A DNA stretch of 64,000 nt from Candidatus Poribacteria bacterium (GTDB taxonomy: Bacteria; Poribacteria; WGA-4E; WGA-3G), in contig OZ244048.1 of assembly GCA_965215265.1 (NCBI GenBank), positions 1,536,001 through 1,600,000 on the forward strand, in the 5' to 3' direction. The notes below the pieces were generated by a model. The model saw nothing but the letters and a program-made list of their open reading frames with translations, did no database searches and was not told where the DNA came from. Position 1 is the stretch's first letter. Each line of letters starts with the position of its first letter. A program made the translations under genes and the position numbers. Positions 4,239 through 48,876 of this stretch are shown here, in pieces.

Positions 4239-4435
4239 TTATTCATAACATAGAAAGCCTCGGACGAGATTTATGGAAGGGTTATCATAACATCAATCAC
4301 TGTTGGGCTCCTGTAGAGAAAAAAACGAAAAAAGGAGAGATACGAAAAGATGATTCATAGCATAGATAACCTCAGACGACATTTACACAGGACTTCACAA
4401 AACATAACCCTTTTAGGTACGGAGAGATACGAAAA
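4239..4435 (+). repeat. Two head-to-tail dispersed units (B arm then A arm)
   Basis: gacgagattt...gggctcctgtagagaaaaa followed by a copy of the 1755-1840 unit ending just before ATG 4437. Confidence 0.85.
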
Positions 4436-4436
4436 G

Positions 4437-7400
4437 ATGATGAAACAGATGAGAGCCTTCTACCTTCTTGTTGTTTTAACAGTTATCGCGCTAGGGGTTG
4501 GCACCGCTGATGCACAAAACCTCGCGCGACAGGCGTATGCTATCTTTGAACAAAACTGCCTGAACTGCCACGGCCCGCATGGTGCCTATACGGAGGAGCT
4601 CGTGATTGAATCCGCGCAAGGCTTGATTGATTCAGGCGTGGTGGTGCCGAGCAATGCTATCGGTTCGGAATTCTATCGCCGTTTGCTTGGCGATACGGAG
4701 AACGGTCTGCAGATGCCGTGGGGAAAACAGCCACTTTCGCCAGAAGCTATTGGAATAATCGGGGCCTGGATTTTAGCAGGTGCACCGAGCTGGGAGATTC
4801 AACACGATGTTGACTTCATTAGCACGGCTGATATGCTGAACACCATCCAAAGACATCTGGAGACGCTTTCCCCCTTCAACCGCCCCTTCGCGCGTTACTT
4901 TACGCTGACCCATCTCTATAACGCCGGCGAGCTGCCTGAGGCGCTGAGCGCCTACAAGATAGCCCTCTCTAAACTGATAAACAGCCTCTCGTGGGGGTTT
5001 GAGATTCACAATCCGGATGCCATAGGCCCGGCAGGGACGATATTCTACATAGATCTGCGGGACTATGAATGGGATACGAACGACGCATGGACATCGATAG
5101 AGCAGGTCTATCCGTATGCGATTGAGTTCGATGTTCAAACGCAAGCGCCGCTGCGTGACAAACTAATGCACCTCCGTGAAGAAATGGCTTGTGAGGTGCC
5201 GTATGTGTATGTCGATTGGTTCCTCGCGACGGCTGCCTTGCCGCCGCTCTATCACGATATCCTGGATCTGCCCCAAACCGACCGGGAGTTGGAGCGAAGG
5301 CTTGAGGTAGATGTGGCAAGGAATCTTCAGGCGGCACCGGGCGTGCGTGTGTGGCGTGCCGGGTTTAATGATTCCGGGGTGTCAAATCACAACCGCGTGG
5401 TTGAACGACACACGTCTCGGTATGGCGCATATTGGAAAAGCTACGACTTTGATGGGAGTGTAGGCACGCAGAATATCTTCACGCACCCATTGTCTTTCAG
5501 ACAGGATGGTGGTGAAGTCATCTTCAACTTGCCGAACGACTTGCAGGCATACTATATCTCGGATGAGTCTGGGAATAGGATAGATGTAGCGCCGACAACG
5601 ATAGTTTCTAATCCTGCGGCGAGAGATCCAGCAGTGCACAATGGGCTGTCGTGCATAGGGTGTCATACGGAAGGGATGAAGACGTTTGAGGATGGTGTGC
5701 GTTCTGTAGTACTCCAGGCGGGGAACCCACCGTTTGACAAAGAACAGGCGTTGCGTCTGTATGTTGAACAGGGCGAGATGGATGAGCTGGTGGCAGACGA
5801 TGCGAGGCGCTACAGTGAGGCGCTGAAGGAGACGGGTGGTGAACCTGGTGGGATTGAGCCTGTGCACCGTTTCTTTGAGGTGTATCAAGGTCCAGTTGAT
5901 GCGGCGTATGCTGCGGCATCGGTAGGCTTAAAAACTGGGGCGTTCCGGGAACAGATTCGTGCGAAGCCGAGTTTACAACGCCTGGGTTTGCTATCGCTAG
6001 TGGATGAGACGGGGAATGTGAAGCGTGATGCGTGGACGTCGCGTTTTCAGGAGATAGTGAGCGCGCTGAATTCCCCTGACGAGCCTGTTGTGACTCAGCG
6101 TGTGGTTGTGACACCGACGGGCACTTTTCACATCCCCGATGCGAACCTCCGTTCGGCAATTGCCGAAGCCCTCGGCAAAGCACCCGGTGCGGTGGTGACG
6201 GCGGAGGATATAGCAAGGTTAACGCGGCTTGATGCGGATGAAAGAGGCATCCGCGATTTGACAGGGCTTGAGGCGGCGACAAGACTGGAACGGATTGAAT
6301 GTCGTCATAATGCGATAGCCGACCTCTCCCCACTAGCCGGATTAACGCGTCTGAATAACATTAAACTGCGAGGGAACAGAATAACCGATGTATCGCCACT
6401 CGCCGACTTAATCAACGTGGACTGGCTGGGGCTTGAGGAGAACGCGATATCCGATTTATCTCCACTCAAAGGGTTAGTAAAATTGGACGGAATAGGGATT
6501 TCGGACAATCCTATATCGGATGTGTCGCCCCTTGCCAGTCTCATCAGCCTGGAAGGGATAAACGCTTGGCGTACCCATATTAACGACTTTTCCGTTTTGG
6601 CGAAGTTACCAAAGCTGGAGTGGATAGAATTTGGCGACAACAGAGCTATATCCGCATTGCCGTCTTTGAATGGATTAAAAGCGTTGAAACGACTGGAAAT
6701 CAATAACTGCAGCATCTCAGACCTCTCCGGGTTGGCGGAATTACAGCAACTGGAGTGGTTAACATTAGTTAATAACTTGATATCGGATGTGTCGCCATTA
6801 AGAGAGCTAAAAGACTTGAAACATCTGAATCTTGATGCTAACGTTATATCAGACGTGTCGCCGCTTGCAAAACTAACGCGGTTGGAAGTGCTGTACCTTG
6901 AGAACAACGTCATATCGGACACATCGCCGCTTGCAGGGTTAAACAACTTAGAACGGTTGGACCTTCGCAACAATGCGATACTCGACTTTTCGTCTTTAGA
7001 AGCATTACCTGATAAGACATTTATCCGGATGGACGGCAATCCGGGTTTCCCTTCGGGCGGTCCGAAAATAACAGGCCCCTGGTTATGGGCGATAGTACCG
7101 GGAATACGTCTTGATGACAACACAGATTTTCTGGCACGAGCAACGGGTGGTGCAGCGACAGAACTAAAGGTGGCTACCAACGGTGCAAAGGAAGGAAAGG
7201 CTGTGGGAGACAGCGTCTGGACACTTCACAAGCTGGCAGCTAGCGGTGGTAATAACATCAACCGAATGACAGATTCCCTTGGATGGGGGACAGGTGCAGA
7301 GATATATAACCATATCGTCTACGGTTCGGTTGTCTTGGATTCCCCGCATACACAAGAGACAACGATGCTGGTGGGTAGCGATGATGCAGTCAAAGTCTGG

Positions 7401-8651
7401 CTCAACGGAGAGTTGGTTCACCAGGCACTCGTTCATCGCGGGGCTGGCGATTATCAAGACTTTTTCCCCGTGACGTTGAAACAGGGGAAAAACGTGTTGT
7501 TGGTCGCGCTTGACAATCGTGGGCATGGCGGCTTTAGCGGCTTTTTCGGGTTTGCCTCAACTGCGAAATATGAAGTATTCCAACCGAGTCTCCGTTTTAT
7601 CTTTTCCACAGAGACGATGCAGGTCCAGGTCGGCGATACGTTTACCGTGCAGCTGAACGCCGAAAATGTCACCGATTTAGCCGGCTGGCAAACTGATATT
7701 GCGTTTGACTCCGCTGTGCTTGAAGCGGTTGAGGTGAGCGAAGGCGATTTTCTGAAAGCGGAGGGCGTAGATACCTTCTTTCAAGCAGGTGAGATTGATA
7801 ACAAAATCGGTAGAATTACCGGTTTAAACGCAGCGCGACTCTCCCACGCCACGTTGAGTAGACAAGGCACGCTGCTCTCGGTGAAATTCACCGCCATTGC
7901 AAGCGGAAAAAGCGGAGTGACACTGCCTAACTTTCAGGCAGGCTCCCGCGGCGGTCAGACAATCCCTTCGATACCGCCGGAGATGACCGTTGTTGTGGAG
8001 GGTTTGGGCACCCGCCCAAATCCTTCCTTACCTGCGTGGGATGTGAATCGAGATGGTGTCACGAATCTCGTGGATTTGATCCTGGTCGGGTCGGCGCTAG
8101 GGCAATTGCCTGTGAGGAATCCGCGAACAGATGTCAATGGGGATGGCGTTGTAGATGTGTTAGATCTCCAACTGGTTGCGGCACATTTTGGGGAAAGGAT
8201 GGTGCCGGCCGCGGCATCAAGCGCTACCTTGCCCGCGGATTTGACTGCGGAACAAGTGATATGGGTACTGAGTTTTTTACGAGATGCGGATGACGGTTCT
8301 GTTGGTTTAGAACGTGCGATTGCGAATCTCGAACAACTTTTAGGGGCGATGCTGCCGGAGAGAACCGCCCTGCTGGCGAACTATCCGAATCCATTTAACC
8401 CTGAAACCTGGATACCGTATCACTTGGCAACGAGTGCCGATGTGCAGATTCGTATCTATGCGTCGAGTGGGGCATTGGTGCGGACTTTGGATTTAGGACA
8501 TCAGGCTGCAGGACACTATGAGCAAAAAAGCCGGGCGGCGTATTGGGATGGAAAAAATGAAGCAGGTGAGGCTGTAGCGAGCGGTGTTTATTTTTATACG
8601 CTGTCTGCAGGCGATTTCACAGGTACCGGCAAAATGCTCATCAGAAAATAG
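4437..8651 (+). CDS. Secreted multidomain protein: c-type cytochrome (two CxxCH), LRR, cohesin, dockerin, C-terminal sorting-type domain
   Basis: CLNCH and CIGCH, LRR array, cohesin-like VGDTFTVQLNAENVTDLAGWQ, DVNRDG/DVNGDG; start moved to 4437 because 4350-4435 is repeat DNA and a signal peptide follows MMKQMR. Confidence 0.85.
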   Translation: MMKQMRAFYLLVVLTVIALGVGTADAQNLARQAYAIFEQNCLNCHGPHGAYTEELVIESAQGLIDSGVVVPSNAIGSEFYRRLLGDTENGLQMPWGKQPLSPEAIGIIGAWILAGAPSWEIQHDVDFISTADMLNTIQRHLETLSPFNRPFARYFTLTHLYNAGELPEALSAYKIALSKLINSLSWGFEIHNPDAIGPAGTIFYIDLRDYEWDTNDAWTSIEQVYPYAIEFDVQTQAPLRDKLMHLREEMACEVPYVYVDWFLATAALPPLYHDILDLPQTDRELERRLEVDVARNLQAAPGVRVWRAGFNDSGVSNHNRVVERHTSRYGAYWKSYDFDGSVGTQNIFTHPLSFRQDGGEVIFNLPNDLQAYYISDESGNRIDVAPTTIVSNPAARDPAVHNGLSCIGCHTEGMKTFEDGVRSVVLQAGNPPFDKEQALRLYVEQGEMDELVADDARRYSEALKETGGEPGGIEPVHRFFEVYQGPVDAAYAAASVGLKTGAFREQIRAKPSLQRLGLLSLVDETGNVKRDAWTSRFQEIVSALNSPDEPVVTQRVVVTPTGTFHIPDANLRSAIAEALGKAPGAVVTAEDIARLTRLDADERGIRDLTGLEAATRLERIECRHNAIADLSPLAGLTRLNNIKLRGNRITDVSPLADLINVDWLGLEENAISDLSPLKGLVKLDGIGISDNPISDVSPLASLISLEGINAWRTHINDFSVLAKLPKLEWIEFGDNRAISALPSLNGLKALKRLEINNCSISDLSGLAELQQLEWLTLVNNLISDVSPLRELKDLKHLNLDANVISDVSPLAKLTRLEVLYLENNVISDTSPLAGLNNLERLDLRNNAILDFSSLEALPDKTFIRMDGNPGFPSGGPKITGPWLWAIVPGIRLDDNTDFLARATGGAATELKVATNGAKEGKAVGDSVWTLHKLAASGGNNINRMTDSLGWGTGAEIYNHIVYGSVVLDSPHTQETTMLVGSDDAVKVWLNGELVHQALVHRGAGDYQDFFPVTLKQGKNVLLVALDNRGHGGFSGFFGFASTAKYEVFQPSLRFIFSTETMQVQVGDTFTVQLNAENVTDLAGWQTDIAFDSAVLEAVEVSEGDFLKAEGVDTFFQAGEIDNKIGRITGLNAARLSHATLSRQGTLLSVKFTAIASGKSGVTLPNFQAGSRGGQTIPSIPPEMTVVVEGLGTRPNPSLPAWDVNRDGVTNLVDLILVGSALGQLPVRNPRTDVNGDGVVDVLDLQLVAAHFGERMVPAAASSATLPADLTAEQVIWVLSFLRDADDGSVGLERAIANLEQLLGAMLPERTALLANYPNPFNPETWIPYHLATSADVQIRIYASSGALVRTLDLGHQAAGHYEQKSRAAYWDGKNEAGEAVASGVYFYTLSAGDFTGTGKMLIRK

Positions 8652-25536: not shown

Positions 25537-26145
25537 ATGAAAGATTGGATGAACGCGAAAAAAGGCATCGTGATTTTATTGGGCGGGCTGGTGTTAGTGT
25601 TTGCCTGCTACGGGCTGGTAAGAGCGCAATACGGCTTGAAGCCCGTTCAATCAGAGACGCGGCACATCGCCCCGCCGGTTGGGGGGCTCGCAGGGCTCGA
25701 GAGTGACTTGCCTGCAGTCTCCTCTGACTCGGTTTCTCCTGAAACGGTTGCAGAGTGGTTGTCCCTCTTACGTGCGAACGATGACGGTTCAGCCGTCTTT
25801 GCACAGGGGATAGCGAACCTTGAACAGGTGCTGTGGGAGATGCAGCCTGTGGAGCGGCCGCGGCTGTTAGCGAACTATCCGAATCCGTTCAACCCAGAGA
25901 CGTGGATACCTTATCAACTGGCAGTGCCAGCGGATGTGGAGATATCCATCTATGCGTTGGACGGGCGGTTAGTCCGGACGTTAGCATTGGGACATCAAGC
26001 GGCGGGCCGTTACGAGAGCAAGGCGCGTGCCGCGTATTGGGACGGGCGCAACGCCTCTGGTGAGCGTGTTGCAAGTGGTATCTATTTCTATACGCTGCGC
26101 GCCGGCGACTTCTCCGCGACGCAGAAGATGTTGATTAGGAAGTAA
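25537..26145 (+). CDS. Small secreted protein consisting mainly of the conserved C-terminal sorting-type domain
   Basis: Signal peptide, DDGS..F.QGIANL helix and NYPNPFNPETWIPY...KMLIRK. Confidence 0.8.
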   Translation: MKDWMNAKKGIVILLGGLVLVFACYGLVRAQYGLKPVQSETRHIAPPVGGLAGLESDLPAVSSDSVSPETVAEWLSLLRANDDGSAVFAQGIANLEQVLWEMQPVERPRLLANYPNPFNPETWIPYQLAVPADVEISIYALDGRLVRTLALGHQAAGRYESKARAAYWDGRNASGERVASGIYFYTLRAGDFSATQKMLIRK

Positions 26146-26296
26146 AGGGAGACAGATGTGTAAGGGTGTGTGTGCCGTCTGCGTTTGACGCGGCGGTCCC
26201 GCCTCCAACCCCTCGTATTTTTAGCCGCGAGTGTTTCGCGGCATTTGGAGGACTCTAATGTATGATAAAAACGTGTCAAAGGTTTGGAGGGCTGTA

Positions 26297-29029
26297 ATGA
26301 ATAATAAAAGCGTGTCAGTGATGTTAGCAATATTGGCGTGTATAGTTTTAAGTTTAGGGAGTGTTGGCAATGTGTGGGCACAAAGGGTAAGCGTGGCTGC
26401 GGATGTCGGTGTGCTTTCGGCTGTGAAAGGTGATGCGGATGTGAATGGTGATGGCCGTGTGGATATAGTGGATTTGGCACTGGTAGCGGCGCGCCTGGGA
26501 ACCCGCGGTAACAGTTCGGCAGATTTGAACGGGAATAGTGTAGTGGATATAGGGGATGTGGCGTTAGTAGCAGAGGGGTTTAACGGTGCGGCGTCTGCAC
26601 CTGCGGCACCTGCGTCTGTGCCTGCAGGGATGGTGCTCATCCCCGGCGGCACCTTCCAGATGGGCAGCGATGCTGCTGATGCGCGGGATAACGAGCAGCC
26701 TGTGCGGAGGGTGCATGTGGACGCGTTCTATATGGATACGCACGAAGTGACTAACGCGGCGTATCAAACTTTTGTGCTGGCGAACCCGCAGTGGCAGAAG
26801 GGGCGTATTTCGGATGCCTTCCACAGCGGTAAGTACCTAAAACATTGGGAAGGTAATAACTATCCAGGGGGTAAAGGGGACCATCCTGTGACGTATGTGT
26901 CGTGGTATGCGGCGATGGCATATTCTGCGTGGGCAGGGAAGCGTCTTCCAACGGAGGCGGAGTGGGAGAAAGCGGCACGCGGTGGGGAGGCAGGCCGGAA
27001 GTATCCGTGGGGAGACACGATAACGGCGAACGATGCGAACTACGATAGGAATGTAGACGATACGACTTCTGTGGGGAGTTATGCTGCGAACGGGTATGGG
27101 CTGTTCGACATGGCTGGGAACGTTCACGAGTGGTGCCTTGATGAATGGGATAAGACATTTTATGCTGCGTCTCCGTCTCGTAATCCGCTGCGTGGTGTGT
27201 CTGGTAGTACGCTTGCGAATGTGGCTGAGATTGTAGCGGACTACACAGGCGTAAATGTGAACTTAAAGCGGGTTTTGCGGGGTGGTAATTGGCGTGCTGA
27301 TGCACGTTACCTGCGCGTCGCCGATAGGTTCAAAAGGGAGCCGACGTTCACGGAAAGCTTCGCCGGGTTTCGTTGTGTGAGTGCAGAGCCGCCGCCGGAG
27401 CTCCCCACACCGCCGGAACCACCCACACCGCCGGAGCCACCCGCACTGGAGCCGGAGCCACCCGCACCGCAGGCACCTGCAGGGATGGCCCTCATCCCCG
27501 CGGGCGAGTTCCAGATGGGCAGCAACGATGCCGAGGCCGATGGTGACGAGCAGCCTGTGCGGAGGGTGCATGTGGACGCGTTCTACATGGATACGCACGA
27601 AGTGACGAACGCCGAGTATAGAAGTTTTCTGCTGGCGAACCCGCAGTGGCGGAAGACGCGGATTCCGGATGCCCTCCATGATGGTAATTACCTAAGCGAT
27701 TGGGACGGTAATAAGTATCCTAAGCGTAAGGGGGACCATCCTGTGGTGAATGTGTCGTGGTATGCGGCGATGGCGTATGCGGCGTGGGCAGGTAAGCGTC
27801 TTCCAACGGAGGCGGAGTGGGAGAAAGCGGCGCGCGGCGGTTGGCTAGGGTTAAAGTATCCGTGGGGAAAGACGATATCCTCTGTGCATGCGAACTACGG
27901 TAGGAATGTAGGGGACACCCGTCCTGTGGGGAGTTATGCGGCGAACGGGTATGGGCTGTTCGACATGGCCGGCAACGTTTACGAGTGGTGCCTTGATGCG
28001 TATAATGTGGATTTTTATTCTGCGTCTCCGTCTCGTAATCCGCTGAGTGGAGTGTCTGGCAGTATGCTCGCGAATCTGGATGAGATTGTATCGGACTATA
28101 CCAATATTGAGTCTTCTCGCGTGTTGCGCGGCGGTAGCTGGTCCTTTGATTCACTCTTCCTGCGTGCCGCTAATCGCCGCGGGGATACCCCTACAGACAC
28201 CAACGGCAGCTACGGGTTCCGGTGTGCGAGGGCTGTGACTCCTTCCGTGCCGCCGGCACCGGGAGGGATGGCACTCATTCCCGCGGGTGCCTTCCAGATG
28301 GGCAGCAACGATGCCGAGGCCGCTGGTGAAGAGCAGCCTGTGCATACGGTGTATGTGGACGCGTTCTATATGGATACGCACGAAGTGACGAACGCCGAGT
28401 ATAAAAGTTTTGTGCTGGCGAATCCCGAGTGGCAGAAGACGCGGATTCCGCCTGCACTCCACAATGGTAATTATCTAAACCATTGGGACGGTAATAACTA
28501 TCCAGTGGGTAAGGGGGACCATCCTGTGACGTATGTGTCGTGGTATGGTGCGATGGCGTATGCTGCGTGGGCAGGGAAGCGTCTTCCAACGGAGGCGGAA
28601 TGGGAGAAAGCGGCACGCGGGGGGTTAGTTGGTAAGAAATACCCGTGGGGAGACACGATAACGCCGGACGATGCGAACTACGGTAATAATGTAGGCGGTA
28701 CAACGGCTGTGGGGAGTTATGCAGTGAACGGGTATGGGCTATATGATATGGCCGGCAACGTGTGGGAGTGGTGTCTTGATGCGTATAATGAGGATTTCTA
28801 TTCTGCGTCTCCGTCTAGTAATCCGCTGAGTGGTGTGTCTGACAGTATGCTCGCGAATCTGGATGAGATTATAGATAACTATACCAATGTTACCTCCTCT
28901 CGCGTGTTGCGTGGCAGGGGTTGGGCCGATAATCCGCGTACCGTGCGTGTCGCCGCTCGCTTCGGGCCTCCGCCGACGCTCACGTTCAACAACCTCGGGT
29001 TCCGGTGTGCGAGGGCTGTAACCCCTTAA
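26297..29029 (+). CDS. Secreted dockerin plus three tandem FGE-sulfatase (C-type lectin fold) domains; candidate DGR target
   Basis: GGAGG before ATG 26297; three copies of FQMGS...RLPTEAEWEKAARGG...DMAGNV.EW...GFRC separated by Pro-rich linkers. Confidence 0.9.
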   Translation: MNNKSVSVMLAILACIVLSLGSVGNVWAQRVSVAADVGVLSAVKGDADVNGDGRVDIVDLALVAARLGTRGNSSADLNGNSVVDIGDVALVAEGFNGAASAPAAPASVPAGMVLIPGGTFQMGSDAADARDNEQPVRRVHVDAFYMDTHEVTNAAYQTFVLANPQWQKGRISDAFHSGKYLKHWEGNNYPGGKGDHPVTYVSWYAAMAYSAWAGKRLPTEAEWEKAARGGEAGRKYPWGDTITANDANYDRNVDDTTSVGSYAANGYGLFDMAGNVHEWCLDEWDKTFYAASPSRNPLRGVSGSTLANVAEIVADYTGVNVNLKRVLRGGNWRADARYLRVADRFKREPTFTESFAGFRCVSAEPPPELPTPPEPPTPPEPPALEPEPPAPQAPAGMALIPAGEFQMGSNDAEADGDEQPVRRVHVDAFYMDTHEVTNAEYRSFLLANPQWRKTRIPDALHDGNYLSDWDGNKYPKRKGDHPVVNVSWYAAMAYAAWAGKRLPTEAEWEKAARGGWLGLKYPWGKTISSVHANYGRNVGDTRPVGSYAANGYGLFDMAGNVYEWCLDAYNVDFYSASPSRNPLSGVSGSMLANLDEIVSDYTNIESSRVLRGGSWSFDSLFLRAANRRGDTPTDTNGSYGFRCARAVTPSVPPAPGGMALIPAGAFQMGSNDAEAAGEEQPVHTVYVDAFYMDTHEVTNAEYKSFVLANPEWQKTRIPPALHNGNYLNHWDGNNYPVGKGDHPVTYVSWYGAMAYAAWAGKRLPTEAEWEKAARGGLVGKKYPWGDTITPDDANYGNNVGGTTAVGSYAVNGYGLYDMAGNVWEWCLDAYNEDFYSASPSSNPLSGVSDSMLANLDEIIDNYTNVTSSRVLRGRGWADNPRTVRVAARFGPPPTLTFNNLGFRCARAVTP

Positions 29030-29050
29030 ATCTTTACCCCTTTACCCCTC

Positions 29051-29068
29051 CGAGCTGCGTGCAGCTCG
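29051..29068. other. Perfect GC hairpin 21 nt after the stop (candidate DGR cis hairpin)
   Basis: cgagctgc-gt-gcagctcg, no U tract. Confidence 0.5.
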
Positions 29069-29147
29069 TATCGAATGGAAAAAGCCCGAATAGCAAAGTT
29101 TGATGTTGCGGAATTTGAATGAAATTCCGCAACATCAAATGTTGTCA

Positions 29148-29321
29148 TCACGAATCTTCTCTATCGATGCGCTGCGGCAACCGGTTGACTTCTATCTCTG
29201 TCTGGATAGAGGCACCCAGCCCAGAGAAGGGCAGCGCGAGGAACTCTTTGAAGAAAGGGTCCCAAAACTTCCGTTTGCTTTGTGTTTCTTTAGATGTCTC
29301 TGGTGCCGTAGTTTGCCTCAT
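29148..29321 (-). pseudogene. Short gene fragment, possibly N-terminus of an Rpn/PD-(D/E)XK-like protein
   Basis: 57-aa frame ...WDPFFKEFL...EIEVNRLPQRID; TTGACA-18-TATACT upstream. Confidence 0.3.
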
Positions 29322-29540: not shown

Positions 29541-31109
29541 TTAATCTGACAGCGGCGAGATATCCGATACTTGCGTATCACTGAGATCCAGCACTCTCAA
29601 GTTCGTGAGGTTTGCCAGCGGCGAGACATCCGACACTTGCGTACCCCCGAGATCCAACTCTTCCAAGTTGGTGGCGTATTCAAGTCCAGTCAGCTTGCTA
29701 ACGTCTGAGCCACCTAAATCTAGGCTTGTCAAGTCTAGCATATGTACCGAGGTCACAGCCGTCCCCGCGGCGATGTTGAGTGTCTCCTTGATTTTCGCAC
29801 GGAGCGTCTCATCCGGAATGGTCACCTCGACGCTTGTATTTACAGGCACCGTCAGCGTATTCGAGGCCAGGCTCAGGTTGCCCGCTATGTCCATGGTGGC
29901 ATTCTCTGGCACCGTTATTTCCACATTTCCGTCAAAAGCCGACGGCGGCGTGATAGTCGCTCTGTAGACTTTGAAGGCGGAACTATGTTTCACCTGTCCG
30001 TTATCATCCTTCATAGGAGGAAAACCGGGATCCCGATGGTCTAAGCCTATCAACATCGGGGCTGAAACCTGCCAATCAGCCGCGGTGGAGCCCAATGTCA
30101 CCGCGGTGTCATCTACCTTGAGCGTGATGTCCGTCGCCTCGAAGCCTCGCGTGGTATCTGCAATCACACCATCATCGCCACCTCCAATCCCATAATTGTA
30201 GAATAGGAATTCCACATCAAAGGACTCTGTCTGAGTGTCAGGTTCGGTAACAGCCGCATCGGGGTCTGTCGTTGAAAAGTCCACATGGGCGGTGCGGAAA
30301 CCCATCTCATCATGAGTCTCAGCCTTGATCAGCCCGGGAATCCTCACATTCGCCCGGATAGTATCTATGAGATAGTCATAAGTGTTGACATCTGCCTTAT
30401 TATAAAATAAGCCAAGTTTGTTCACAAGCTCGGCCCCGGCCCAAGCTTGTCCTCCTTGATGGGTACGTTTGATGTGATTATTAGCATCGGGAAGATTATA
30501 GGGAGGAACGTTAGGGATCTGAGCAAAACGCAGATCGCCGAAAACGTCATCACCGTCTTGCACCGTGTATGTGAAATATACGACTTTATTATCGAGTTCC
30601 GCCGTGGTCATAGTTTCATTATACACCGCGAGTAAATCCGTTCTGAGGTCCTGGTCTAAACGTAAAACCAGGTACGGCTTGTTGGAATCCGGATTCGTGA
30701 CTGTCACGTCGTCCCCAAATGTCAACTTAAAATGGATATTATCGCCAGTCGTGAAGAATTTAACTGTTCTGTCTGTCGTGGGTATGGAGGTGGAGGTGGA
30801 GTACCCCGGTGCAGTAAGAACATTACCTGTTTGAGCGTCTAGTAGCGGCTGCCCAGCACGATTGTTCCAATCGGCCAGTAACGCTATGCGGGCCGCGTTA
30901 TAGAGGGAATCGCCTGTCACTCGTGGATCGGGCGTGTCTGTCGTTATCTCAAGACTGTCTAAAACCGGTATATTTGCCTGCACGGTAGCCATCGGTGCGG
31001 CTAACATCGCAATCCCGGCTATCGAAATTACAGATGAGATAAATCCGCCACTCAACACGCAAATAAAACACTTAACATATAGAAGGGGGGGGTGCATTCT
31101 TCTCTTCAT
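29541..31109 (-). CDS. Secreted Ig-like protein ending in a short LRR tract (possibly C-terminally truncated)
   Basis: Hydrophobic N-terminus, DIAGN Ig-like motif, IPDETLRAKI cap and about three LRRs before the stop. Confidence 0.7.
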   Translation of the reverse strand: MKRRMHPPLLYVKCFICVLSGGFISSVISIAGIAMLAAPMATVQANIPVLDSLEITTDTPDPRVTGDSLYNAARIALLADWNNRAGQPLLDAQTGNVLTAPGYSTSTSIPTTDRTVKFFTTGDNIHFKLTFGDDVTVTNPDSNKPYLVLRLDQDLRTDLLAVYNETMTTAELDNKVVYFTYTVQDGDDVFGDLRFAQIPNVPPYNLPDANNHIKRTHQGGQAWAGAELVNKLGLFYNKADVNTYDYLIDTIRANVRIPGLIKAETHDEMGFRTAHVDFSTTDPDAAVTEPDTQTESFDVEFLFYNYGIGGGDDGVIADTTRGFEATDITLKVDDTAVTLGSTAADWQVSAPMLIGLDHRDPGFPPMKDDNGQVKHSSAFKVYRATITPPSAFDGNVEITVPENATMDIAGNLSLASNTLTVPVNTSVEVTIPDETLRAKIKETLNIAAGTAVTSVHMLDLTSLDLGGSDVSKLTGLEYATNLEELDLGGTQVSDVSPLANLTNLRVLDLSDTQVSDISPLSD

Positions 31110-47949: not shown

Positions 47950-48876
47950 ATGTTTCATAAAAGGATTTCAATGAATTTGAGGCTTTTCTTGTCTGCTAAA
48001 AACGTATCAATGGTATTGGCGTGTCTACTCACCGTTTTGGGTTGCGGTGGCACGAAAAGGGCTGCCCCGACCGCCGCGCCGCCTGCTGGCATGGCGCTTA
48101 TCCCTGCTGGCGATTTCCGGATGGGTAGCGACGATACAGATTCTCGGACGAATGAGCAGCCGGTGCACCGTGTGTATGTGGATGCGTTCTATATGGACAC
48201 GCACGAGGTGACAAATTCGGACTACAAGCGTTTTCTGCTTGCAAATCCGCAGTGGCAGAAGGGACGTATTTCTCGTGCACTCCACAATGGTGAGTACCTA
48301 AAAGACTGGAATGGGAATAACTATCCTGCGAGTAAAGGAGAGCATCCGGTGAAGCATGTGAGTTGGTATGCGGCGATGGCTTATGCACGGTGGGCAGGGA
48401 AACGTCTGCCGACGGAGGCGGAGTGGGAGAAAGCGGCACGCGGCGGTAAAAAAGGGCTAAAATACCCGTGGGGTAACACGATAACGCCGAGTGATGCGAA
48501 CTATGGTTGGAATGTCGGAGATACTTGTGCTGTAGGGAGTTATACGCCTAACAGGTACGGGCTGTATGACATGGCGGGTAACGTTCACGAGTGGTGTCTT
48601 GATGCATATAATGTGGATTTCTATTCTTCGTCTGCGCGGCGTAATCCGTTAAGTGACGTGGGTACGATAGCCAATCTGGGTGCGATTATAGATGCTTTCA
48701 CAAAAGTTAAGTCGGTTCGCGTGTTGCGAGGCGGTAGCTGGTACGATAATGCCCGACCTGTTCGCGTCGCCTATCGTGGCGGGGCAACGCCGACGGATTC
48801 GTTCATCAACCTCGGTTTTCGTTGCGTGAGGTCTGTTCGACAGTCAGAAGCAGGATTTGCAAGATTGGAGGACTGA
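47950..48876 (+). CDS. FGE-sulfatase domain lipoprotein, paralog of the 26297 domains
   Basis: Lipobox-like VLGC, RLPTEAEWEKAARGG, RGGSW...LGFRC; exact start uncertain. Confidence 0.88.
   Translation: MFHKRISMNLRLFLSAKNVSMVLACLLTVLGCGGTKRAAPTAAPPAGMALIPAGDFRMGSDDTDSRTNEQPVHRVYVDAFYMDTHEVTNSDYKRFLLANPQWQKGRISRALHNGEYLKDWNGNNYPASKGEHPVKHVSWYAAMAYARWAGKRLPTEAEWEKAARGGKKGLKYPWGNTITPSDANYGWNVGDTCAVGSYTPNRYGLYDMAGNVHEWCLDAYNVDFYSSSARRNPLSDVGTIANLGAIIDAFTKVKSVRVLRGGSWYDNARPVRVAYRGGATPTDSFINLGFRCVRSVRQSEAGFARLED

Follow-up and report, generated by a model that had tools for sequence, protein, structure and literature searches.

The window analysed here is a 64,000-nucleotide stretch of a Candidatus Poribacteria contig (OZ244048.1) from a bacterium of the sponge-symbiont type, and the gene under study lies on its forward strand. 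The longest ORF (26231..29029, 932 aa) encodes a dockerin-like module and three non-catalytic FGE-type C-type-lectin (CLec) domains. Translation likely starts at ATG 26258 or ATG 26297, each with GGAGG 5-6 nt on its 5' side; a signal-peptide-like stretch, MNNKSVSVMLAILACIVLSLGSVGNVWAQ, was read by eye after ATG 26297. Neither ATG-start version of the protein was found in the protein collection. Upstream on the same strand is a 202-aa gene (25537..26145) whose product starts with a hydrophobic leader, as judged by eye, and ends in a domain resembling FlgD_ig / Por_Secre_tail (Pfam FlgD_ig, 36 bits with a cut-off of 27; Por_Secre_tail, 24.2 bits, under the cut-off of 27). This gene is 80-100% identical to the DNA located 5' of paralogous target genes, and the two genes were duplicated together.

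The dockerin-like module (26426..26581, + strand) consists of two DxNGDGxVDxxD-type repeats. The Dockerin_1 score of the 932-aa protein, 18.7 bits, is below the Pfam gathering cut-off of 22.9 for a type I dockerin. Paralogs with an almost identical N-terminus exceed that cut-off (27.8, 29.8 and 29.5 bits), the stretch itself showing 93-98% identity to paralogs, and a cohesin+dockerin+FGE target in the same genome scored 30.8 bits. Eight cohesin matches were found in the host genome. By homology, 26426-26581 plausibly acts as a dockerin, through which the target protein might plausibly be displayed by cohesin-dockerin binding.

Pfam PF03781 (FGE-sulfatase) matched three stretches of the ORF (E 4.1e-186): domain 1 at 26627..27379 (genome 1562627-1563379), domain 2 at 27479..28231 (genome 1563479-1564231) and domain 3 at 28265..29014 (genome 1564265-1565014), all on the + strand. 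The fold was assigned from sequence matches, domain 3 aligning to bacterial FGE 6muj with E 5e-38 and to the TvpA structure 2y3c with E 1e-12. TvpA reportedly belongs, with remote targets, to the DGR of Treponema denticola, in work credited to Le Coq and Ghosh in 2011. The LCHDSYC segment of 6muj, whose cysteines are the catalytic pair of FGE, is replaced in domain 3 by WADNP with a 3-residue gap; it has no cysteine, and domain 3 does not classify as a catalytic FGE. In the same alignment, the variable residues of domain 3 fall in the loop replacing the FGE active-site loop.

The first-pass annotation had proposed that the three domains are similar in DNA except at their ends, and that these ends are variable regions of a remote DGR. 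Mean column identity in the three-domain DNA alignment was 88%, with divergence concentrated in the last ~100 columns. The 29-codon blocks that it had delimited (27290-27376, 28139-28225 and 28922-29008) all have the same length and keep the reading frame, and all eight codon triplets that it had listed were correct. Its description of fixed third bases with changes at codon positions 1-2 holds for domain 2 versus domain 3 (14/12/7 differences at positions 1/2/3) but is less true for domain 1 (14/12/14 versus domain 2 and 13/11/9 versus domain 3). The excess at positions 1-2 in the domain-2/domain-3 block is real, because the 100 codons directly upstream differ at 16/13/31 positions.

A genome search for the AAY-rich TR expected beside a DGR RT revealed one RT, with Avd and such a TR next to it. 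RVT_1 matched only once in the whole 4.83-Mb genome (85 bits). The RT carries the motifs YVDD and IGNLTSQ; the SQ motif is a hallmark of DGR RTs. With RTs of Nostoc, Anabaena, Fischerella and others it shares 55-60% identity, and its best PDB match is 8ub7 (E 9.6e-63; depositor's name 'Reverse transcriptase'); none of the NCBIfam RT models scored over its own cut-off. The accessory protein, a bAvd, matched both NF033474 (120.1 bits, cut-off 80) and PF22296 (82.9 bits, cut-off 40). The TR (genome 1421032-1421146, ...WNNNTRNLRAANRNRNTPTNTNNNNGFRCAKT) and the RT lie about 143.9 kb upstream of domain 3. A-to-N change in the mutagenised part of the TR cannot produce a stop codon. The IMH* of the TR is a variant, GGGTTCCGGTGTGCGAAGACCCT, ...GCGAAGACCCT, different from the IMH of domains 2 and 3 (GGGTTCCGGTGTGCGAGGGCTGT). 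An Rfam scan of the DGR locus gave no match.

Domains 2 and 3 align with the TR without gaps across 115 nt, with mismatches at 20/35 A and 4/80 non-A positions for domain 2 and at 24/35 A and 8/80 non-A positions for domain 3; at the end of domain 1, the corresponding numbers are 23/35 and 22/80, and mismatches there are not confined to TR adenines. Within the 29 codons, mismatches were found at 23/33 A vs 12/54 non-A positions in domain 1, 20/33 vs 4/54 in domain 2 (p 1.1e-7) and 23/33 vs 4/54 in domain 3 (p 1.3e-9). All three blocks are thus adenine-biased, and with TR and RT present in the genome the proposal of a remote DGR target is supported.

The VR of domain 3 (28898..28996, + strand) is homologous to the TR and is followed by an IMH (28997..29019) that agrees at 23/23 positions with the IMH of the RT-adjacent target (genome 1419164). 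The tail said to be common to domains 2 and 3 is this same GGGTTCCGGTGTGCGAGGGCTGT, present at 28214-28236 and 28997-29019. Next come the stop codon TAA and a conserved post-stop spacer (ATCTTTACCCCTTTACCCC..., 29027..29050) that is repeated after terminal cassettes; the 22-nt element starting from TAA has 7 exact copies in the genome and 21 with <=3 mismatches, and it follows terminal cassettes. The expected GC hairpin was located at 29051..29068, 21 nt after the stop, as a potential target-site hairpin/cruciform with a GC-rich 7-bp stem and a 4-nt loop, CGTG. Folded as DNA, it gave -7 kcal/mol (z -2.44; 5/200 shuffles were equally good). It is not an intrinsic terminator: there is no T-run, and a terminator scan made no call. 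A 41-nt palindrome farther downstream (29099-29139) was considered as a dispersed repeat and rejected, being single-copy in the genome. Judged from its sequence, the domain-3 cassette appears to be a complete trans target with TR homology, IMH, stop, spacer and hairpin.

To describe what has happened to this cassette since duplication, we compared cassettes whose 300 nt of upstream sequence are 93-99% identical, and scored 33 TR-adenine positions separately from the remaining 39 core positions. Between the domain-3 cassette and paralog 4441513, differences fall at 25/33 A and 2/39 non-A positions, and between it and paralog 4143499 at 22/33 A and 3/39 non-A positions; upstream of the cassette, these closest paralogs are 93-94% identical to it. 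Identity drops to 63-65% only in the interval 28918-28977, and the flanks are 93-97% identical. Because 22-25 of 33 adenine positions versus 2-3 of 39 others have changed, domain 3 was rewritten by adenine mutagenesis after duplication. The nearest other cassette in the genome differs at 19/33 A positions, so that of domain 3 was not copied from an extant paralog.

These comparisons bear on a reading without any retroelement at the locus, in which gene conversion among some 36 paralogous cassettes shuffles a binding loop that is under diversifying selection. The family is large and clearly recombining, with mosaic marker types in cassettes such as 1004522 and 1666147, and the coincidence of the variable residues with the loop in place of the FGE active site would suit such selection. 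However, third codon positions are largely spared by the changes, and in the two variable segments no non-A position is hit (0/27), a pattern not predicted by selection at the protein level; the non-A mismatches of domain 3 to the TR all lie within adenine-free blocks. The genome holds no donor cassette for domain 3, the matching TR adjoins RT and Avd, and the pattern of change tracks TR adenines already between paralogs. We consider this reading very improbable.

The cassette of domain 2 (28115..28213, + strand) is internal and has a DGR-written pattern. Its IMH (28214..28236) shows 0/23 mismatches to the consensus and continues into linker coding sequence with no stop. Relative to paralog cassettes 4142716 and 4442296, with an identity of 0.97 over the upstream 300 nt, it has 0/33 A and 4/39 non-A differences; since no adenine position differs from either paralog, domain 2 carries a frozen cassette. 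The TR-like end of domain 1 (27266..27388, + strand) has an IMH with 6/23 mismatches and differs from the paralog at 4141867 at 0/33 A and 1/39 non-A positions, and near-identical copies of its block occur in five other proteins. We infer that it is an older, decayed cassette and not a live VR. Hairpins were looked for after the ends of domains 1 and 2 and were not found.

Of the three VRs proposed in the first-pass annotation, then, that of domain 3 stood as rewritten at TR adenines, and those of domains 1 and 2 did not, the former being degenerate and shared with other proteins and the latter unchanged at adenines. By these paralog comparisons the three blocks are unequal, only domain 3 having been altered at TR adenines since gene duplication. 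The adenine bias common to all three might still point to live VRs of one multi-VR target, and there is a precedent: Wu et al. 2018 (PMC5758913) describe a triple-VR CLec protein in which two VRs are internal and each seems to have undergone mutagenesis. In addition, the internal paralog cassette 1795018, which has no hairpin, is almost TR-perfect (1 non-A mismatch); either the hairpin is not strictly required or writing preceded the internal position. Yet three live VRs are hard to reconcile with 0/33 adenine differences in domain 2 (two paralogs) and domain 1 (one paralog) against 22-25/33 for domain 3 in the same genes, with the degenerate IMH of domain 1 or with two internal ends devoid of hairpins, and we attach hardly any probability to them.

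In the whole genome, TR-like cassettes number 36, spread over about 24 genes; there, FGE/CLec cassettes are joined to varied N-terminal domains, one of them a caspase-type peptidase. The same hairpin element, its stem perfect over 7-10 bp and its loop 4 nt long, follows 14/26 terminal cassettes and 0/8 internal ones. The loops are CGTG, CACG, CATG, CGCG or CAGG, and the stem variants CCGAGCTG/CAGCTCGG and CCGATCTG/CAGATCGG are one compensatory pair apart. The 8 non-A mismatches of domain 3 to the present TR make up a marker set, T15 G21 T24 G46 T51 T53 C57, which is common to other cassettes; the markers at positions 53 and 57 are also present in the TRs of two sister genomes. Because this set is shared elsewhere, the last full-length rewriting of domain 3 used a TR allele other than the present one. 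The high identity of paralog flanks could partly reflect gene conversion instead of recent duplication.

In a sister Poribacteria genome (G004), the RT is 83% identical, the RT-adjacent VR differs from its TR at 15 A and 0 non-A positions, and 26 further TR-like segments are present. A genome of the same genus (G001) showed no RT match; its best match to the target-gene region had E 2.9e-30 and is no close counterpart. An ENA protein (P0014) ends in a domain 83% identical to domain 3, with nearly the same sequence before the VR and a different VR. In a homolog search of the protein collection, the best outside matches were 75-84% identical, the query and its two closest paralogs being absent from the matches listed.

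Logan contigs of metagenomic runs are, at this locus, unitigs of 90-220 nt with depths summed over paralogs, and we therefore used exact-match contigs alone. Exact copies of the domain-3 VR (0 differences) turned up in contigs of X4 (28882-29038) and X7 (28852-29022), runs that belong to different studies; one of the two may be the source sample. As contigs drop rare variants, these identical VRs neither show nor exclude heterogeneity. Contigs of run X1 had no match at 28926-28979, though the flank 29045-29192 was present, and raw reads of Hi-C run X9 gave 41 reads, none of them 95% alike. A metagenome scan for any VR between two anchors of the domain-3 locus returned 0 matches; the scan with the IMH* of the TR returned one, which was dismissed as the end of an unrelated FGE gene.

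Domain 3 might instead belong to a fossil family: written by the DGR in the past, with the locus or the whole element now inactive, its paralog differences old and its flanks homogenised by gene conversion. Nearly all cassettes do depart from the present TR at non-A positions (in 26 gapless cassettes, at 1-24 of the 39 in the core), the marker set of domain 3 fits another TR allele, six cassettes, including the RT-adjacent VR, exceed the TR in length by one codon, and the same domain-3 VR appeared in two studies. Nevertheless, RT, Avd and TR are all intact, the IMH is mismatch-free at 21/34 sites, perfect hairpins persist after the terminal cassettes counted above, and some cassettes have only 0-2 non-A mismatches. 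Between the host genome and G004, ~190 nt 3' of the TR are better conserved than the TR itself. Moreover, the contrast of domain 3 with domains 1 and 2 in the same duplicated genes requires adenine-specific change after the copies separated. Inactivity is a possibility to be taken seriously, but we judge it rather unlikely.

We consider it likely that this secreted, dockerin-bearing three-CLec protein is a trans target of the only DGR of the genome, with a complete C-terminal cassette that has been rewritten at adenines. In the proposed mechanism, the RT copying TR RNA would insert random bases opposite adenines, and the resulting cDNA would replace the VR leftwards from the IMH. Homing would act in trans on the domain-3 cassette, and rewriting would alter the putative ligand-binding loop that stands in for the FGE active-site loop. 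The missing hairpin may be the reason why the internal domain-2 cassette is frozen.

Homing of Bordetella phage BPP-1 needs a hairpin with a 7-10 bp stem, a 4-nt loop and a distance of 4-34 bp (Guo et al. 2011, PMC3240598), and the domain-3 hairpin, with its 7-bp stem and 4-nt loop, fits these requirements as described there. The order VR, IMH and GC-rich hairpin is the same in both systems, and in both the stem is kept as a structure, not as a sequence. The loops differ (those listed above versus GRNA in BPP-1; PMC3240598), the hairpin here lies 31 nt after the IMH behind the conserved spacer, and 144 kb of a cellular genome separate the target from the RT.

In Treponema denticola, one RT/TR likewise serves distant targets that are FGE-type CLec variable proteins, and 38/56 variable columns of the VRs are at TR adenines, with non-adenine differences also present (Nimkulrat et al. 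2016, PMC4891356). According to that account there are seven targets, lipoproteins with one VR each, as opposed to about 24 genes with tandem domains and dockerin here. Cyanobacterial cellular DGRs, whose CLec paralogs are likewise dispersed (Vallota-Eastman et al. 2020, PMC7517822), are similar in having C-terminal FGE/CLec cassettes on varied N-terminal domains, including a caspase-type peptidase, recent intragenomic target duplication, and remote cassettes near 3' ends. As far as that paper describes them, they differ from the present case in their N-terminal modules (kinase-type versus dockerin/cohesin) and mostly cytosolic proteins, whereas those here look secreted; here the host is of Poribacteria type, one TR is matched by 36 cassettes, and two or three CLec domains occur in tandem. 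Other multi-VR targets (Wu et al. 2018, PMC5758913; Dore et al. 2024, PMC10907252) also have several cassettes per protein with unequal diversification; in our case, the inequality is deduced from paralog comparison, not population reads, and agrees with which cassettes have the hairpin and which lack it. The standard that Wu et al. 2018 (PMC5758913) applied to non-adjacent targets was 'only A-to-N differences, allowing minor exceptions'.

The target is therefore a case of a known system, a cellular DGR with remote paralogous targets, and is notable for its scale of one RT/TR against 36 cassettes in about 24 genes; the most non-adjacent targets given for one DGR in the 2018 survey is seven (Wu et al., PMC5758913). 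A literature search found no description of a DGR in Poribacteria, the two being mentioned together in a cold-seep virus paper. The locus also contains a built-in control: among three cassettes of one repeatedly duplicated protein, only the hairpin-flanked one is altered at TR adenines, in agreement with the hairpin requirement proven experimentally in a phage DGR. This provides a testable case for the fixation of DGR-written specificities.

A broader and quite speculative idea, which we think improbable as it stands, is that a single DGR, acting in trans, maintains lectin cassettes throughout the genome as a library and functions as an 'explore, then archive' ratchet. Only hairpin-flanked C-terminal cassettes would be rewritten; fusion of a new domain behind a cassette would remove its stop, spacer and hairpin, and the frozen specificity would then pass intact to later duplicates, domain 2 being an example. 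A fresh terminal cassette would meanwhile keep exploring. Multi-lectin proteins would be mounted by their dockerins on cohesin scaffolds, and the symbiont would gain a combinatorial binding surface, part fixed and part variable. On a practical note, matches of this kind that Poribacteria-type genomes show to 'sulfatase-modifying enzyme' probably represent variable modules for binding and not enzymes.

The window was placed at G000:C1:1536001-1600000 in a single-contig genome of 4.83 Mb (G000). ORF 26231-29029 (+) encodes 932 amino acids, with three stretches matching PF03781 (FGE-sulfatase, E 4.1e-186) and a Dockerin_1 match of 18.7 bits, below the cut-off of 22.9. Candidate ATG starts at 26258 and 26297 are each preceded by GGAGG, and a start at 26297 would give a leader that, judged by eye, resembles a signal peptide. 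Aligned as DNA, the three domains showed 88% identity per column, lower only near the domain ends. There the first-pass annotation had delimited three 29-codon blocks as variable regions (VRs) of a diversity-generating retroelement (DGR). The blocks are indeed of equal length and in frame, its eight listed codon triplets are correct (8/8), and we also confirmed the tail shared by domains 2 and 3 and the hairpin at 29051-29068, which has a 7-bp stem and a 4-nt loop (-7 kcal/mol, z -2.44). The claimed bias towards codon positions 1 and 2 is real between domains 2 and 3 (14/12/7 differences at positions 1/2/3, versus 16/13/31 in the 100 codons directly upstream) but weaker for domain 1, whose block gave 14/12/14 against domain 2 and 13/11/9 against domain 3.

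Scanning the whole genome with RVT_1, we found a single reverse transcriptase (RT), a 356-aa ORF at genome positions 1419874-1420944 with the motifs YVDD and IGNLTSQ; its closest solved structure was 8ub7 (E 9.6e-63), an entry named merely 'Reverse transcriptase'. The 121-aa ORF directly upstream was identified as Avd by two models, both above cut-off (PF22296, 82.9 bits, cut-off 40; NF033474, 'diversity-generating retroelement protein Avd', 120.1 bits, cut-off 80). Directly upstream of Avd are two FGE genes with ends resembling a template repeat (TR), and downstream of the RT lies the TR itself (1421032-1421146; SRVLRGGSWNNNTRNLRAANRNRNTPTNTNNNNGFRCAKT), in whose mutagenised part A-to-N changes can create 0 stop codons. 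The remote RT and template sought by the first-pass annotation were thus located, the TR lying 143,866 nt before the start of the domain-3 cassette. The ~190 nt after the TR (G000:C1:1421147-1421340; L018:2774-2967 in the extracted locus) are conserved above the TR itself between this genome and the sister Poribacteria genome G004 (locus L019), and include the identical stretch GGGTTGCCAGAGTTGGTGTGCCTCCGA. It probably forms the structured spacer portion of the DGR RNA. A search of the DGR locus and the post-TR region against Rfam returned no hit.

We compared the TR-like cassettes ending domains 1-3 (dom1, 27266-27388; dom2, 28115-28213; dom3, 28898-28996) with the TR; the alignment spans 115 positions, of which 35 are A and 80 non-A. 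Mismatches at A and non-A positions numbered 23/35 and 22/80 in dom1, 20/35 and 4/80 in dom2, and 24/35 and 8/80 in dom3. As predicted, they were adenine-biased in all three (Fisher p over the 87 nt of each block: 1.6e-5, 1.1e-7 and 1.3e-9, respectively). The non-A mismatches of dom3 all fall in adenine-free blocks (positions 15, 19, 21, 24, 46, 51, 53 and 57), and its two variable segments differ from the TR at 23/33 A and 0/27 non-A positions. The IMH, the element at the VR 3' end, carries 6/23 mismatches in dom1.

Elsewhere in the genome, close paralogs of the gene together with its upstream neighbour occur at 4140067 and 4441336 (92-93% identity over ~3.6 kb), and further ones at 1260863 and 1792270 (85-86% identity). 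For each cassette pair we took the ungapped identity over the preceding 300 nt and counted how many of the 33 TR-adenine and 39 other core positions differ. No A difference separated dom1 from 4141867 (upstream identity 0.99; non-A differences, 1), or dom2 from 4142716 or 4442296 (0.97 and 4 for each), whereas dom3 differed at 25 A and 2 non-A positions from 4441513 (0.94) and at 22 and 3 from 4143499 (0.93). In the paralog alignment, 63-65% identity was confined to 28918-28977, between flanks of 93-97%. Since these cassettes belong to the same duplicated genes, the contrast indicates that, once the copies had diverged, only the terminal cassette, dom3, underwent rewriting at TR adenines, and that the internal cassettes dom1 and dom2 changed by drift alone. 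The earlier view of three DGR variable regions is therefore upheld for domain 3 (22-25/33) but not, since the duplication, for domains 1 and 2 (0/33). None of the genome's cassettes qualified as donor of the dom3 sequence, the nearest differing at 19/33 A positions.

A search for IMH-like sites returned 36, or 34 without the TR and one unrelated site. A stop follows the IMH by 8 nt in 26/34 (terminal sites), and a linker is read through in 8/34 (internal sites). Behind the terminal sites comes a conserved spacer, marked by a 22-nt element starting from TAA (7 exact copies, 21 at <=3 mismatches). At 14/26 terminal and 0/8 internal sites, a perfect stem of 7-10 bp closed by a 4-nt loop lies ~31 nt past the IMH. 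In the remaining 12/26 terminal sites the script detected no perfect stem of 6 bp or more, though on inspection several contain the element with a single mismatched pair; a compensatory pair distinguishes two stem versions. In phage BPP-1, efficient homing needs a hairpin/cruciform downstream of the IMH, and in other DGRs the stems are GC-rich, 7-10 bp long and capped by 4-nt loops, and lie 4-34 bp from the VR (excerpts of Guo et al. 2011, PMC3240598). The IMH, stop, spacer and hairpin are all present at dom3. In dom2 a perfect IMH is followed by linker codons, and we infer that the missing hairpin froze this cassette. The internal paralog cassette 1795018, with a single non-A mismatch to the TR, either weakens that inference or was written while still terminal.

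Two orphan target-site ends lie outside the window at G000:C1:2998871 and 4393899 (minus strand), each comprising a perfect IMH with stop, spacer and hairpin. Both follow ~90 nt of non-coding sequence that they share, and each is located just past the stop of a gene ending ...GLHD.E.RYFQ...WWPPD. No FGE domain or VR was found upstream of them, and deletion of former targets may have left them behind. An inverted repeat at 29099-29139, between the target gene and a convergent LRR gene (29541-31109, minus), pairs perfectly over 18 bp around a 5-nt loop; it is present once in the genome and was called terminator-like on the minus strand.

At non-A positions dom3 carries the markers T15 G21 T24 G46 T51 T53 C57, where the present TR has C T C C C C T. 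The set is common to cassettes 4441513 and 3916363 and largely present in nine others; positions 52-57 read GTCGCC, marker-like, in the TRs of two sister Poribacteria genomes and GCCGCT in the present TR. Dom3 thus received its last full-length writing from another TR allele, older or now lost. The markers of dom2 are of the present-TR type yet predate the duplication, so any ordering of the writing events is tentative. Six cassettes, the RT-adjacent one among them, exceed the TR by one codon, which lies in the AAC run in 4/6. Cassettes with the fewest non-A mismatches (RT-adjacent 1419062, 1795831, 3732663, 4795102 and others) have five AAC-derived codons versus the TR's four; 4795102 (101 nt) and 4150367 (94 nt) are out of frame. 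These length differences suggest TR length polymorphism, slippage on the AAC run, or assembly errors.

The exact dom3 VR (0 differences) occurs in a 157-nt contig of run X4 and a 171-nt contig of run X7, from two studies. One of these runs may come from the source sample, and rare variants are lost in contigs, which hence say little on dom3 heterogeneity. Run X1 had depth 0 across 28926-28979, yet a contig over 29045-29192 with 5 differences. A raw-read run (X9) gave 41 reads, none 95% alike.

PF03781 matches number 58 in the genome. Employing 5' and 3' anchors, we found 39 TR-like ends; leaving out the TR itself and two FGE ends with an unrelated middle (842429 and 1308880), 36 cassettes remained in 24 ORFs, seven of which hold two or three. 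Twenty-six have the TR length, 6 one extra codon and 4 other lengths. Among ten target ORFs scanned for domains, three combine a dockerin with two or three FGE domains, one has cohesin, dockerin and FGE, one a caspase-type peptidase with 3 FGE, one a C39-like peptidase with FGE, and four an FGE match alone. Seven FGE genes with TR-like ends, some truncated and several with conserved spacer and hairpin, cluster in ~9 kb at G000:C1:997696-1006764. A second FGE-domain gene in the window (47950-48876, +; 308 aa), with a lipoprotein-like leader by eye, has a degenerate TR-like end (~48715-48837; mismatches 21/35 A, 16/80 non-A) and a decayed IMH; neither a stop nor a hairpin directly follows that end. 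Of 8 cohesin matches genome-wide, one (7614-7940) falls in window ORF 4350-8651 (+), whose 1433 aa also include a CxxCH motif, leucine-rich repeats, a dockerin-like repeat pair and the same FlgD_ig/Por_Secre_tail-like C-terminus as the small gene that precedes the DGR target. The product of this ORF may serve as a scaffold for proteins that carry dockerins.

Among solved structures, domain 3 is matched by FGEs (E 5e-38) and by TvpA (2y3c, E 1e-12). Aligned to 6muj, WADNP stands for the loop LCHDSYC, with a 3-residue gap and no cysteine; the VR spans exactly the equivalent of this loop and the following strand. Since the loop cysteines of 6muj are the catalytic ones and domain 3 lacks them, this domain is probably a binding module rather than an enzyme. 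Remote targets, multi-VR targets and unequal VR activity are all already published: according to excerpts of Wu et al. 2018 (PMC5758913), one CLec target has three VRs and no DGR surveyed has more than seven non-adjacent targets, and those of Vallota-Eastman et al. 2020 (PMC7517822) describe paralog families of CLec targets in cyanobacteria. Multi-VR targets with unequal activity are also covered by Dore et al. 2024 (PMC10907252). What stands out here is the cassette count for a single TR, the tandem lectins with dockerin, the host group, and the clean internal control of a rewritten terminal cassette versus frozen internal ones.

Of the 30 relatives searched, G004 alone carries a close RT (83% identity); the same-genus genome G001 gave no RT match. 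The RT-adjacent VR of G004 differs from its TR at 15 A and 0 non-A positions, and that TR has 26 further matching segments at E <= 0.001. In GTDB (one genome per species), 380 stretches were related to the RT: the best were two Poribacteria MAGs (82-83%), in keeping with the Poribacteria label of the host, followed by one uncultured-bacterium MAG (68% and 64%) and by others at 51-60%, mostly from cyanobacteria.
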